A program made the position numbers and the translations under genes. DNA of 64,000 nt, taken from the sequence record PV636258.1; one strand, given 5' to 3'. Within the stretch, counting starts at the first letter, position 1. Every line of letters begins with the position of its first letter. This document shows positions 46,359-50,758 of this stretch, piece by piece. The stretch comes from a phage. The notes under the pieces were generated by a model, which was given only the letters and a program-made list of their open reading frames with translations, did no database searches and was not told where the DNA came from.

Positions 46359-47421
46359 TATCGAGGCGCTCCAGCATATCTGCAGGCATAACCGAACTCT
46401 GAGAGATACCGAACATGTTGTTCACATCGTCAACAAAGTCTGGGTTTTCCAGCAGCGGATACCAGAAGTCATCCCCCAGCTCTGCCTTACGATATTTCTT
46501 TTCTTTTTCTGGATCAAACCCGCCTTTGGCAGTGCGTTGATACCAAGAACCACTCACCAAATCCACATACCCCAGCATGCGCGCAATTTCTAACATACCG
46601 GACCAACGGTCAATACCGCCTTCATACAACACAGTGACAGGGAACTTGGCTTTTTCACGGACAAAGCGGCCTTTCATAATGTTGACTGTAAACTGCCATC
46701 CCAAAAGGTCTTTGTCTTCTTTAACTTGAGAACGCGTGATGAACCACAATTGGTTAGAAGACAGGAACCCCTGTTTACCGCCTTTGATGTTCGGCTCGGC
46801 GTATTGGTTCCCGATTTCATCATAGTACGAGTTGATCCATACCAAAACGAATTTCTTTTCAGTGACCAACGGGGTGATAACACGCCAAAAACTATTGAGA
46901 GCGCGAGCGCGGGTCATATCTTGTGTGTCTTTGCCCGCGATGGCATCATCAACTTCTTTGGTAGACGGCAACTGGCTGATTGAGTCAATGAATACGATGA
47001 TCTTGTCACCTTTCTGTGCATCGTTCAGAAGCTGTGTCAGCTTGATCTTCGTCTTTTCAACGTTTTCAATCGGCAGATACAAGACACGGTCCATGTCAAT
47101 ACCCATAGATGTCCAGTAGTTTTCATTCGCACCGCCTTCTGAATCCGCGAAGATACAAATTGCATCAGGAAACTTATCCATGTAAGCCTTAACATCCACC
47201 AGCCCAAACATGGTTTTGAATGTACGAGAATCCCCTACCAACTGTTTGATGCCTGATATCAGACCACCATCAATACGACCGGACCAGGCCAAATTCAGAA
47301 TAGGAATACCCGTACTGCAAATAATGTCAGGCTTCAGCGCATCGGTCTTTGACAGCACTTCGGCATTCGGGTCCAGTTTCTTTGCTGTCTTGAGCATGCG
47401 AGCCATCAATGAATCGGCCAT
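46336..47421 (-). CDS. uvsX: UvsX recombinase (RecA/Rad51 family)
   Basis: 361 aa; N-terminal similarity to T4 UvsX architecture, Walker A GDSRTFKT, KVDDAIAGKDTQDMTRA region. Confidence 0.9.
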   Translation of the reverse strand: MADSLMARMLKTAKKLDPNAEVLSKTDALKPDIICSTGIPILNLAWSGRIDGGLISGIKQLVGDSRTFKTMFGLVDVKAYMDKFPDAICIFADSEGGANENYWTSMGIDMDRVLYLPIENVEKTKIKLTQLLNDAQKGDKIIVFIDSISQLPSTKEVDDAIAGKDTQDMTRARALNSFWRVITPLVTEKKFVLVWINSYYDEIGNQYAEPNIKGGKQGFLSSNQLWFITRSQVKEDKDLLGWQFTVNIMKGRFVREKAKFPVTVLYEGGIDRWSGMLEIARMLGYVDLVSGSWYQRTAKGGFDPEKEKKYRKAELGDDFWYPLLENPDFVDDVNNMFGISQSSVMPADMLERLDNVIKTTE

Positions 47422-47936
47422 TTCGTTTCCTCTTGCTTGTTGATCGTAATTAATAAATCGGTGCCCAAGACTTTCTTGGACAATATATTGATTGCTTCGT
47501 GAATCGCCATTATTGACGGGAGTTTTTCATCGTTAATTTCGGAACCCCCGCGTTCTGTTAAATACATATTACGCAGACGATTGTGCTGTGCCCTGTTGAC
47601 ACAAGAAACATTCAATGCGATATTCAGGATATACATCATTTGTTCAGTTGTAACATCCTTTGGAATAGCATGAACATAATATATCGCATCTTCAAAATAG
47701 ATATGCTGTAATGACTCAGGAATTTCTTCTCCACCGAAAGCAAAATCTTCAATACGTTTGAAAAGGGTTTCCGGCTCTGGTGTTGTAATATGTTGCGTTA
47801 CAGTAGCCGCACCATCTGGTTCTTTGTTGAATTTGGTCGCGATAACGACATGACCGCCTGGTTTAATAAACTCAGCGAAGTTCTCTGCCATGTGCGGGGC
47901 ATATTCCGCATAATATGATACGACAACTGTAAACAT
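47406..47936 (-). CDS. hypothetical protein
   Basis: 176-aa ORF coupled within nucleotide-metabolism operon. Confidence 0.45.
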   Translation of the reverse strand: MFTVVVSYYAEYAPHMAENFAEFIKPGGHVVIATKFNKEPDGAATVTQHITTPEPETLFKRIEDFAFGGEEIPESLQHIYFEDAIYYVHAIPKDVTTEQMMYILNIALNVSCVNRAQHNRLRNMYLTERGGSEINDEKLPSIMAIHEAINILSKKVLGTDLLITINKQEETKWPIH

Positions 47937-48481
47937 TAGAACTCCAGAGTCAGAGGGGTTTCGGCAGACTTGTCATAGTTCGCACCGCCAGCAGCACGTA
48001 GACGATTGCGATCGTTTTTGCGCTTGTGTGCCAGCATGTAGGTCTCAGCATCCAGCCCCAAATATCCGCAAGCCGCTGCCAAGAAGGTAGCCAAAACATT
48101 CCGAAGAGGGTGTGACATGAAATACGTGAACAGTTCAGTCACTTTCCTGAGGTCGTTAGGGGTTTGAATTGGCTGCGCCTGAACGAATCTCACCATTTCT
48201 GGAATATCGTGTGGTTTGTCTTCCTCCTGCAGGACAGCACAGAGCATGAAGTGAACAACGTCCACCAACTCGTATATGGCATCCACTTGTCGCCAATGCT
48301 TACCACCCCCATAGATCTTCCAGTCTATGGTTGTTTCGTCTAGAAACTCTGCCCACTCACGATAGATGGAGTTTGCTATCGCCACTTCGGTCCAGCGCTT
48401 CTTCCACTCTTCCCCAAAATAGGCCACGTTGGTGGCCTTTTGAAGTTCGAGCAGACTTTTAATATGCTCTGCTGTGATCAT
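47936..48481 (-). CDS. 56: MazG-like dNTP pyrophosphatase (gp56 dCTPase/dUTPase-like)
   Basis: EWAEFLDET and ELVDVVHFML acidic helix motifs as in T4 gp56-type all-alpha NTP-PPases. Confidence 0.55.
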   Translation of the reverse strand: MITAEHIKSLLELQKATNVAYFGEEWKKRWTEVAIANSIYREWAEFLDETTIDWKIYGGGKHWRQVDAIYELVDVVHFMLCAVLQEEDKPHDIPEMVRFVQAQPIQTPNDLRKVTELFTYFMSHPLRNVLATFLAAACGYLGLDAETYMLAHKRKNDRNRLRAAGGANYDKSAETPLTLEF

Positions 48482-49047: not shown

Positions 49048-50087
49048 TCCCCATACCCCCACATGTGTTTACGGTCAACGGGTGATTGTAACAACGCATT
49101 ACGAAGACCATCATCAGCAATCCGACGTTTATCAATTTTAGTATCATTAAGGCGACACCACAGACAATATGACATATCCATCATCAAACCTGTATCTGCG
49201 TTATATTCCTTCAAATGCTCTCTGATTTTACCAAATTCACTGCCAATGTCACAGTGATGAAGTACACCGAGGAACAGATTTTGGATGTTTTCTTGACATT
49301 TCACCTTTTCCGAAGAGAATTCCAACAAAGAATTGTACATACCAGTAGAAGTTCGGGTCTTGTTGGTTATGTTCCCGAGTTGCTTCCGACTGACTTCGTT
49401 GTTGTAATAGTGAAGGTTATTCGAGAACAGTTTATAATTCCCGACTTCCACGTTCAACACCTTCGCCAATACTTCCTGCAAAATGGAGAATTCAATGAAG
49501 TTGATTGAACTCATACCCCAGAGGACATCCTGACTTCGATTGATGACCGTGATGTTCAACCGCCCTTCTGTTATACTGAACAATAAAGCCAGATTACAGA
49601 TCATGTCTTTAGTCTTGGCTTCTCCTGTTTCACTATGCGCGGCCAAACTTTCATCTGAGTCCAGAGCTGGATCATAGATGGTGAGATACGCCTGACGGGT
49701 GTTGGGGTTATTGCGCAAACGGTTGATGACACTATTCAGCTGGCCATAGTTGTACAGGCGTGGTCCGTAAGCACCACGCCACGTTACGCCATCATCCGAG
49801 AAGTTGACCGCACGAGGGAGGACTCGGGAAAGGAAACGGATGTCATTGCGGCCTGACAGAACCCAGAATGTTTCACCAATCGCAGCAAGCGCAGATGAAT
49901 TACGACCTTCAACAGATAACCAACGATCTCGAGGGTCAGCCACCGTAATCGTCACGCCATCAATAAAACGAGTGCCGTCAGTGTTAATCTCTGCGTTGCC
50001 AGGATCTGACTCAATCCCGTGTTCACGGATAGCCAACACAGCTTTCTTCAGCATATCATTATTGTTTAAAGCAAAAATCTCCATCAA
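49044..50087 (-). CDS. thymidylate synthase-family enzyme, divergent (candidate deoxypyrimidylate hydroxymethylase)
   Basis: TS-fold motif series: GAYGPRLYNYGQ, NNPNTRQAYLTIYDP, Cys in DMICNLALLF, NRSQDV, SSINF (Asn at uracil-specifying position), SNNLHYY; 347 aa with C-terminal extension. Confidence 0.8.
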   Translation of the reverse strand: MMEIFALNNNDMLKKAVLAIREHGIESDPGNAEINTDGTRFIDGVTITVADPRDRWLSVEGRNSSALAAIGETFWVLSGRNDIRFLSRVLPRAVNFSDDGVTWRGAYGPRLYNYGQLNSVINRLRNNPNTRQAYLTIYDPALDSDESLAAHSETGEAKTKDMICNLALLFSITEGRLNITVINRSQDVLWGMSSINFIEFSILQEVLAKVLNVEVGNYKLFSNNLHYYNNEVSRKQLGNITNKTRTSTGMYNSLLEFSSEKVKCQENIQNLFLGVLHHCDIGSEFGKIREHLKEYNADTGLMMDMSYCLWCRLNDTKIDKRRIADDGLRNALLQSPVDRKHMWGYGE

Positions 50088-50758
50088 TCAATACTCCCAA
50101 AATCACGATTGAGAAACGCAAAAACAGCCTGCTCTACAGTCAGGCCATCGGACTTCATCATACCTGCAGCCACCGTAGGGAACAAGCCTTTATGCCGTTG
50201 ACGGTGATCATGAACTCTCTCCCACTTCTCGACCACCAGACTTTCATTGAAGTCTGCGCCACCGTTACGCGATTTAACACGGGCAATACAGGTTTCAAGA
50301 GGGGTATCCATAAAGAGGACGACCAATTCACGTGGTGGGCGTGTCAGGCGGGGAATCCAAGAACTCAATAATGTAGACGGAATGATGCCTTCGAAAATCA
50401 CATCATATTTCAGGTATTCTGGTTGGTCAGCAATAGACAACGCGAACAACATCTGCTCAGTATCCTTCAGAGAATCAACCCCTTTGGACTTAGACTTGTC
50501 ATATTTACCGACACAGACAATATTGTAAGATGGACAAACCGTGAGCATGATCTTACTGTTATGGGTTACGACATACGCCTGAGGATCATTCTCCGCCAAA
50601 TAAGAAGGCACAGTAGACTTACCACTACCATTGGAGCCTTTAATGTAATACAACTCTCCTCGTGCCGAATATTCCCCTTCTACAGCAGGTGGTTTGACAA
50701 ACAAATGAACAGGGCGCTTCAACAGCCCTTTGAGCGAATAAGACATGACATGCTCCAA
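50084..50758 (-). CDS. P-loop kinase (candidate 5-hydroxymethyl-pyrimidine DNA kinase)
   Basis: Walker A GSNGSGKST; stop overlaps start of TS-family gene; function inferred from coupling. Confidence 0.55.
   Translation of the reverse strand: MEHVMSYSLKGLLKRPVHLFVKPPAVEGEYSARGELYYIKGSNGSGKSTVPSYLAENDPQAYVVTHNSKIMLTVCPSYNIVCVGKYDKSKSKGVDSLKDTEQMLFALSIADQPEYLKYDVIFEGIIPSTLLSSWIPRLTRPPRELVVLFMDTPLETCIARVKSRNGGADFNESLVVEKWERVHDHRQRHKGLFPTVAAGMMKSDGLTVEQAVFAFLNRDFGSID

Follow-up and report, generated by a model that had tools for sequence, protein, structure and literature searches.

The 64,000-nucleotide stretch of phage DNA analyzed here (sequence record PV636258.1; referred to as the window) carries on its minus strand, at 47406-50758, a compact set of genes that very probably forms the core of the ViI-like thymidine-hypermodification pathway, in which thymine is replaced by 5-hydroxymethyldeoxyuridine (5-hmdU) and the new base is subsequently decorated. 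The excluded nucleotide is deoxythymidine triphosphate (dTTP), and the replaced base is thymine rather than cytosine. An earlier sequence-only reading of this DNA had proposed that these genes, together with others elsewhere in the window, exclude a canonical deoxynucleoside triphosphate (dNTP) and supply a modified one, an idea borne out both by its match to the published scheme for hmdU phages and by relatives that exclude thymidine and carry a modified base. Because the window is 97.7-99.6% identical to Salmonella phage vB_SenA_SM5 and 100% identical to it across 47406-50758, it can be assigned to the genome of a ViI-like phage, specifically a Kuttervirus (Ackermannviridae, Cvivirinae). Positions 38087-64000 match positions 1-25914 of SM5, an already deposited genome, at 99.6% identity, and the remaining window matches at 97.7-98.9%. 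The type phage Vi01 is collinear with the window, and SM5 is collinear with Vi01 over the modification region. Altogether, 271 phage records match 47406-50758, with enterobacterial hosts that are chiefly Salmonella, Klebsiella, Escherichia, and Dickeya.

The interval opens a run of eight minus-strand genes. These encode 5-hmdU DNA kinase 1, so assigned from Pfam and from orthology with ViI gp67 (50084..50746); a thymidylate synthase (TS) homologue predicted to be a deoxyuridine monophosphate (dUMP) hydroxymethylase (49044..50084); a deoxynucleoside monophosphate (dNMP) kinase predicted to act on 5-hmdUMP (48478..49047); a dimeric all-alpha dUTPase-family nucleoside triphosphate (NTP) pyrophosphatase, predicted to be a dUTPase/dTTPase (47936..48481); an ACT-like protein of 176 aa (47406..47936); the UvsX recombinase (46336..47421; PF00154 RecA and PF21134 T4_UVSX_C); a 109-aa open reading frame (ORF; 46029..46358) assigned to phrog_3998, a family of unknown function, and without a Pfam match; and, as the last gene, a gp41-type replicative helicase (44598..46028; PF03796 DnaB_C) that is annotated as a DNA primase/helicase in SM5 and Vi01. 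The seven junctions between them all overlap or nearly abut. The DNA kinase and TS homologue share one nucleotide in TGATG, the TS homologue and dNMP kinase as well as the dNMP kinase and pyrophosphatase are joined by ATGA, and the pyrophosphatase meets the ACT-like ORF at TAATG; the ACT-like ORF overlaps UvsX by 16 nt, UvsX overlaps the 109-aa ORF by 23 nt, and a 6-nt gap separates the latter from gp41 in the deposited annotation. The sequence-only reading had placed a MazG-like enzyme, a dNMP kinase, a TS-family enzyme, and a P-loop kinase at these minus-strand positions, and its family calls hold (PF08761, phrog_139, PF00303, and a Walker A motif, respectively), as does its claim that they are chained by ATGA or overlapping junctions into uvsX and the gp41 helicase. 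Its gene list is nevertheless incomplete, since the interval contains five ORFs and the ACT-like one at 47406-47936 went unnamed; its ORFs were correctly located but were extended to the most upstream TTG or GTG codons, whereas the likely starts are ATG 50746 (with GGAG 6 nt upstream), ATG 50084, and ATG 49047. The chaining is real but not exceptional, as many genes here are joined this closely: of the 90 same-strand neighbour pairs, 31 overlap and 47 lie within 10 nt. No other run in the genome is as long; the next after these seven tight junctions has six.

In the proposed pathway, a deoxycytidine monophosphate (dCMP) deaminase (32590-33111) would make dUMP, and the TS homologue (49044-50084) would hydroxymethylate it to 5-hmdUMP instead of methylating it. 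The dNMP kinase (48478-49047) would convert 5-hmdUMP to 5-hmdUDP, and the host nucleoside diphosphate (NDP) kinase would complete the synthesis of 5-hmdUTP. The pyrophosphatase (47936-48481) would cleave dUTP, which feeds the hydroxymethylase, and dTTP, which removes the competitor, and would spare 5-hmdUTP, with an NT5C nucleotidase (5637-6419) probably draining dTMP. These pre-replicative steps are predicted from homology. The phage polymerase would then incorporate 5-hmdU into DNA, where two DNA kinases (50084-50746 and 6735-7640) would phosphorylate the hydroxymethyl group in the polymer and a serine:DNA transferase (8182-9423) would swap the phosphate for serine; the biochemistry behind these steps comes from the ViI orthologues, which are 85-94% identical. 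Finally, a pyridoxal phosphate (PLP)-dependent decarboxylase, encoded in ViI about 1 kb to the left of the window, would trim the serine to yield 5-(2-aminoethoxy)methyl-dU (5-NeOmdU), and the modified base would shield the DNA from restriction enzymes. Since UvsX and the helicase belong to one overlapping run with the first DNA kinase and the pre-replicative genes, these enzymes are probably co-produced with them at the onset of DNA synthesis.

The published pre-replicative scheme of hmdU phages comprises a dUMP hydroxymethylase, a dTTPase, a dTMPase, a dCMP deaminase, and a dNMP kinase, followed by host NDP kinase and incorporation by the phage polymerase (PMC8989533). A candidate for every phage-encoded pre-replicative step of this scheme is present in the window, and the matches to HMUDK, HMUD2, ADDT, dUTPase_2, TS, NT5C, and dCMP deaminase all exceed the Pfam cutoffs. 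The comparison with gene sets of phages with known modified bases, which had been suggested as a check, gives a candidate for each pre-replicative enzyme class, with thymine as the base concerned. Data from relatives point in the same direction: the closely related phage CBA120 does not incorporate 3H-thymidine (PMC3184105), and 5-NeOmdU takes the place of approximately 40% of T in ViI, CBA120, and CBA6 (PMC5889632).

The product of the first gene of the run covers the complete PF18748 HMUDK_HMUD1 model (1-196/196; E 3.1e-112; 373 bits versus a cutoff of 27), carries the Walker A motif GSNGSGKST, and is 94% identical over 220 aa to Vi01 YP_004327432 (ViI gp67), which occupies the syntenic position; a PDB sequence search with it returned nothing useful. 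From 5-hmdU DNA, ViI gp67 produces in vitro the same 5-phosphomethyl-dUMP (5-PmdUMP) as purified M6 gp54 (PMC8989533). This homology identifies the protein as a putative 5-hmdU DNA kinase that would phosphorylate the 5-hydroxymethyl group in replicated DNA. The pool-remodelling label of the sequence-only reading hence fits the hydroxymethylase, dNMP kinase, and pyrophosphatase but not the P-loop kinase, which is predicted to act on DNA after replication and not on the nucleotide pool.

That reading likewise captured the pre-replicative half of the pathway and missed enzymes at 6735-9423, which belong to a second tightly packed module at 5282-9423 on the plus strand, directly after the DNA polymerase. 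The order here is DUF7292, NT5C, DUF7254, 5-hmdU DNA kinase 2, a 67-aa ORF, a 116-aa ORF, and the serine:DNA transferase. DNA kinase 2 (6735..7640, plus strand; PF18747 HMUD2, E 1.8e-149) is the orthologue of ViI gp243, with 85.5% identity to Vi01 YP_004327565, and gp243 gives the same phosphorylated product in vitro as gp67 (PMC8989533). The amino acid:DNA transferase of the aGPT-Pplase2 family (8182..9423, plus strand; PF18724 ADDT, E 1.9e-57) is the orthologue of ViI gp247, with 86.6% identity to Vi01 YP_004327568; purified gp247 transfers serine onto 5-PmdU DNA, and gp226 of ViI decarboxylates the serine product to 5-NeOmdU (PMC8989533). In NCBIfam, no usable match was obtained for the kinases, the ACT-like protein, NT5C, HMUD2, or ADDT.

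These post-replicative enzymes bear on the question of whether the phage might simply carry a plain 5-hmdU genome, as SPO1 or SP8 do, with remodelling of the pool and no further decoration of the base. The genes of the flagged interval minus the DNA kinase do correspond to the SPO1-type pre-replicative set, and the PLP decarboxylase gene falls outside the window. Nonetheless, this alternative is very improbable, as the window carries intact genes for two DNA kinases and a serine:DNA transferase whose products are 85-94% identical to active ViI enzymes, ViI virion DNA contains no 5-hmdU (PMC8989533), the 301-Da nucleoside 5-NeOmdU was found in all ViI-like phages tested (PMC5889632), and SM5, the closest genome, follows the Vi01 gene order across the region.

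A different possibility is that the run provides a T4-style thymidylate supply, with a true TS, a house-cleaning dUTPase, a thymidylate kinase, and a small terminase, and that the DNA is unmodified. This is what the public labels imply: GenBank and RefSeq records list a thymidylate synthase, a dUTPase, and a terminase small subunit, PHROG 800 is a small-terminase family that takes in the first gene, and the kinase has a weak match to phrog_761 (thymidylate kinase). The label "terminase small subunit" is attached to the 5-hmdU DNA kinase in many Ackermannviridae RefSeq records as well as in PHROG 800. A small terminase as the first gene was nevertheless rejected on the grounds of the HMUDK score and the orthology with the active ViI gp67, and also because the real small terminase of Vi01 adjoins the large terminase (Vi01_162c) elsewhere in the genome; the counterpart of 50084-50746 is Vi01_061c, at 38203-38865 of the Vi01 stretch compared. 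A true TS is equally difficult to sustain. The TS homologue scores 57 bits with PF00303 (cutoff 24.3) yet falls below every NCBIfam TS equivalog cutoff (35-56 bits versus 108-405), and it groups with dUMP hydroxymethylases, being 35% identical to SPO1 gp29 (E 9e-35) and 37% identical to the dUMP hydroxymethylase of phage SH-Ab 15599 (E 3e-48). Its matches outside Ackermannviridae in the phage collection with more than approximately 30% identity include proteins of M6/YuA-like Pseudomonas phages and of SPO1-like Bacillus phages, both of them hmdU groups. In the 150 kb of Vi01 inspected, no TS is annotated apart from this one. With the TS cutoffs missed and this grouping, the TS assignment was rejected, and, given relatives that exclude 3H-thymidine and contain 5-NeOmdU, an unmodified genome served by a conventional thymidylate supply is highly improbable. 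The same gene carries the label "thymidylate synthase" in public records, so that both this gene and the DNA kinase appear to be misannotated there.

The residues of the TS homologue are instructive as to the substrate. Its catalytic Cys is retained and aligns with C146 of E. coli TS, and the position equivalent to TS N177 is occupied by Asn, as in E. coli TS and SPO1 gp29, whereas MilA, a CMP hydroxymethylase, has Asp; the Asn follows a one-residue insertion that is shared with SPO1 gp29. In a search of PDB, MilA was the best match (2.5e-17), with E. coli TS at approximately 1e-6. T4 gp42 has Asp at the N177 position, like the cytosine-specific MilA, and T4 gp56 is a dCTPase/dUTPase. A T4-like replacement of cytosine, involving a dCMP hydroxymethylase, a dCTPase, and a gp1-like kinase phosphorylating hmdCMP, could draw on MilA being the closest solved structure, on the membership of T4 gp1 and the T4 dCTPase/dUTPase in the same broad families as the kinase and pyrophosphatase of the window, and on the sequence-only reading having left the excluded base open, but it was rejected as scarcely credible in view of the Asn at the specificity position, the dCMP deaminase encoded in the window, the lack of hydroxymethyldeoxycytidine substitution in CBA120 (PMC3184105), and the ViI nucleosides, among which dC gives a normal peak and T is modified (PMC5889632). 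The TS homologue is hence predicted to be of the hydroxymethylase type, converting dUMP to 5-hmdUMP, in keeping with the proposed replacement of thymine.

The dNMP kinase (48478..49047) and the pyrophosphatase (47936..48481) can be connected to a characterized enzyme. The kinase belongs to phrog_139, deoxynucleoside monophosphate kinase (E 2.3e-48), in addition to the weak phrog_761 match noted above, and is 32% identical to the N-terminal half of SH-Ab 15599 gp18 (E 3e-19). Its P-loop, GRKRSGKD, aligns with GVKRSGKD of T4 gp1 (E 0.003), the only segment for which BLASTP was significant; SDLRTPQE is placed opposite the T4 gp1 sequence PDTRQDHE (D-x-R) solely by another alignment segment, which is not significant (E 0.51). 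No Pfam or NCBIfam match above cutoff was found for the kinase, nor any match to 1DEK, and its best PDB hit has an E-value of 0.18. The pyrophosphatase matches PF08761 dUTPase_2 (E 5.5e-9; 37 bits versus a cutoff of 22.9) and phrog_173 (E 6.8e-42), and its EWAE and ELVD sequences, corresponding to the ExxE/ExxD metal motifs, align to ECAE and EIVD of the Campylobacter jejuni dUTPase 1w2y. It is 29% identical over 79 residues to the C-terminal half of gp18 (E 1e-6); of the four residues of the modelled gp18 base pocket, Gln and Asn are identical, Tyr is replaced by Ile, and Trp is ambiguous. The gp18 gene (SH-Ab 15599 11151-12326) encodes a 391-aa fusion located between the dUMP hydroxymethylase and UvsX genes. 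Because each of the two ATGA-coupled genes in the window matches one half of gp18, together they correspond to the single fused gene. According to a 2026 paper, purified gp18 hydrolyses dTTP and dUTP and does not hydrolyse 5-hmdUTP, other dNTPs, or NTPs (PMC13458397). The refuting condition set by the sequence-only reading, that the MazG-like enzymes are non-specific house-cleaning NTPases, is not what this distant homologue would lead one to expect. The kinase/pyrophosphatase pair thus appears to be a distant homologue of a dTTPase/dUTPase, an analogy that lends new support to the dTTPase assignment.

The supply of dUMP and the removal of dTMP are covered by genes elsewhere in the window that the sequence-only reading had already recognized. 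The dCMP deaminase, the presumed source of dUMP (32590..33111, plus strand; PF00383, E 1.3e-17), contains HAEENA and PCPDC, corresponding to the HAE and PCxxC zinc motifs, and is 94% identical to Vi01_030. The haloacid dehalogenase (HAD) nucleotidase-like protein (5637..6419, plus strand) is an NT5C-type 5'-deoxynucleotidase and a candidate dTMPase (PF06941, E 8.7e-8; 32.7 bits versus a cutoff of 24.8); it has the DxDxT and DD motifs in VDVDLT and LIDDNP and shows weak PDB matches to 5'(3')-deoxyribonucleotidases.

Several observations weigh against the proposed pathway or limit how far it can be taken. The hydroxymethylase, dNMP kinase, pyrophosphatase, and nucleotidase of the ViI group are homology assignments only, and the enzyme roles in this particular phage are predicted from assays on relatives. 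The similarity of the pyrophosphatase to the characterized gp18 domain is low (29% over 79 residues, with two of the four pocket residues clearly aligned in the model-based comparison). Two further MazG-like proteins are encoded in the genome, one of them in the window, and any of the three could be the actual dTTPase. The final product cannot be confirmed from the window, because the window contains the kinases and transferase of the ViI-type 5-NeOmdU set, whereas the PLP decarboxylase orthologue (gp226; Vi01_182, 140538-141812) maps approximately 1 kb outside the left edge of the window. As to transcription, a sigma-70 promoter scan gave 23 matches versus 19.1 +/- 4.4 expected from shuffled sequence, which is not above chance, and showed no convincing sigma-70 promoter immediately ahead of the DNA kinase gene. 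Three copies of the T4-type late promoter TATAAATA are present in the window, none of them near the run. Co-transcription of the run with UvsX and the helicase is likely from the overlap of the genes, but the description "single operon" rests on this overlap only, because promoter searches gave no support.

At the 5' edge of the run, a strong terminator-like hairpin at 50765-50793 on the minus strand (13 pairs, then the T-rich tail TGTTTATT) separates the DNA kinase gene from a 319-aa gene upstream. A perfect TATAAT is found in and around the loop of this hairpin, approximately 30 nt ahead of the kinase ATG. Within the run there are weaker terminator-like sites only, the best being a 9-pair hairpin inside the ACT-like ORF. 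The upstream gene (50819-51778, minus strand), which ends at the hairpin, encodes an acidic protein of phrog_3905 without a Pfam match, 98.7% identical to Vi01_062c, and it has the best sigma-70-like promoter match of the region (TTTACA-16-TATATT, 51873-51846).

The second all-alpha NTP pyrophosphatase-like protein of the window, which the sequence-only reading had also called MazG-like, is encoded at 22229..22807 on the plus strand (phrog_1247, E 2.5e-39). It contains an EExxE...ExxD motif (VEESCEL, GEVADV) that is invariant in 17 homologues. It has no Pfam or NCBIfam match, a PDB sequence search was empty, and a profile search against PDB gave MazZ as the best match at a non-significant E-value of 0.2. 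The AlphaFold2 (AF2) model is all-helical, with a mean predicted local distance difference test (pLDDT) score of 92.5, and the top six Foldseek matches to it are all dimeric dUTPases: five are phage enzymes, led by 5myd and 5myi (probability 0.97-1.0, template modelling (TM) score approximately 0.5, E 0.05-0.17), and the sixth scores lower (probability 0.60, TM 0.27). From the model, the assignment as a MazG-like pyrophosphatase is reasonable, if not statistically firm. A third protein annotated as a MazG-like pyrophosphatase, Vi01_131c (287 aa), lies in the Vi01 37432-39588 region, outside the window, and adjoins gp160. The latter is the aGPT-Pplase paralogue of clade 1, for which the 2018 listing says only that it is a predicted aG/PT-PPlase of DNA-glycosylase fold (PMC5889632); it is missing from the ViI enzymes to which the 2021 enzyme table assigns functions (PMC8989533).

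Several conserved proteins are translationally coupled within the two modification modules, namely the ACT-like, DUF7292 (5282-5644, plus strand), DUF7254 (6430-6735, plus strand), and 67-aa and 116-aa proteins, the last two encoded on the plus strand at 7643-8198, between DNA kinase 2 and the serine transferase. The ACT-like protein belongs to PF24021 (phage ACT-like) and occurs in 270 records of the phage collection; the matches listed are Ackermannviridae-type genomes, and among them the gene adjoins the dUTPase gene and, in nearly all, UvsX, so that a family-restricted protein sits within the run. Its first 95 residues are confidently modelled as beta-alpha-beta-beta-alpha-beta, with no confident model for the C-terminal half. 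The fold search returned a generic ACT/ferredoxin-like fold and no functional lead, and identity to solved ACT domains is 8-11%. A Pfam search with ten more neighbouring ORFs yielded two DUFs only. Approximately 60% of T positions in ViI-like virion DNA are plain thymidine (PMC5889632), and, as mentioned above, the virion DNA of ViI contains no 5-hmdU and CBA120 takes up no labelled thymidine, which poses the puzzle of how 5-hmdU gives way to thymidine. It is conceivable, though improbable, that one of these five proteins supplies the missing step; options might be conversion of phosphorylated 5-hmdU to thymidine, the choice of sites, or control of the nucleotide pool through metabolite sensing by the ACT-like protein.

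Two further features of the window were recorded. At about 31855-31862, approximately 360 bp that encode a 123-aa hypothetical ORF on the SM5 side (32252-32612 of the SM5 stretch compared) are absent from the window; this difference looks like a small indel between genomes that are otherwise 98-99% identical. A PP-loop ATPase at 29967-30629 (plus strand) resembles QueC weakly, over no more than its N-terminal 32 residues (PF06508, E 3e-5), and its counterpart Vi01_023 is annotated as "QueC-like queuosine biosynthesis"; no further genes of the deazaguanine pathway were seen within the window.

Among known systems, the 5-NeOmdU pathway of ViI (Vi01) is the closest, with the same genus and gene order and with orthologues that are 72-99% identical over the twelve proteins compared. 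The flagged run corresponds to Vi01_061c through Vi01_054c, and nothing of substance differs, the window phage representing a different Kuttervirus species (Kuttervirus PM10 group). The ViI enzymes comprise gp67 and gp243 as 5-hmdU DNA kinases (5-HMUDK), gp247 as serine:DNA transferase, and gp226 as PLP decarboxylase (PMC5889632, PMC8989533). For CBA120, Kutter and colleagues proposed in 2011 that the TS is a dUMP hydroxymethylase, that the neighbouring dNMP kinase acts on hmdUMP, and that the dUTPase probably cleaves dTTP as well, and they noted the dCMP deaminase (PMC3184105); neither the further decoration of 5-hmdU nor the part played by the P-loop kinase had been recognized by then. Lee and colleagues identified the base in 2018 and reconstituted its synthesis with the ViI orthologues in 2021 (PMC5889632, PMC8989533), and a 2024 review describes the modification genes as conserved across Ackermannviridae (PMC11721090). 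The present result is a correct rediscovery, in a deposited genome, of a known pathway and not a new one, because the pathway has been published at the genomic (2011), chemical (2018), and enzymatic (2021) levels. Its relevance lies in the resistance of ViI-like DNA to many restriction enzymes, and in the fact that a base-replacement gene set could be recognized from sequence alone.

More distant systems share the underlying logic. The Acinetobacter phage SH-Ab 15599 is likewise placed in Ackermannviridae and uses the dapT pathway; its gene order of hydroxymethylase, gp18 (kinase plus pyrophosphatase), UvsX, and helicase is that of the window. The kinase and pyrophosphatase are fused there (391 aa), whereas in the window they are separate genes joined by ATGA; unlike the window, SH-Ab 15599 lacks both an ACT-like gene at the matching position and a DNA kinase gene ahead of the hydroxymethylase, and its final base is diaminopropane-thymine rather than the aminoethoxymethyl-dU of ViI-like phages. 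SPO1, SP8, and phi-e have the same enzyme classes as the window (dTTPase, dTMPase, dCMP deaminase, and dNMP kinase), and SPO1 gp29 shares with the TS homologue a C-N-L motif after the catalytic Cys in addition to the insertion before the Asn. In SPO1-type phages, however, 5-hmdU is the final base, and the DNA kinase and amino acid:DNA transferase found in the window are lacking. The replication genes of the window are T4-like, and the hydroxymethylcytosine pathway of T4 (gp42, gp56, and gp1) follows the same logic, in which a hydroxymethylase of the TS family is combined with a pyrophosphatase directed at the canonical triphosphate and with a dedicated dNMP kinase. Between the window kinase and T4 gp1, the similarity does not extend beyond the P-loop. 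The two systems diverge in the base replaced, cytosine in T4 and thymine in the window, and in its subsequent decoration, which is glucosylation in the former and phosphorylation followed by amino-acid transfer in the latter.

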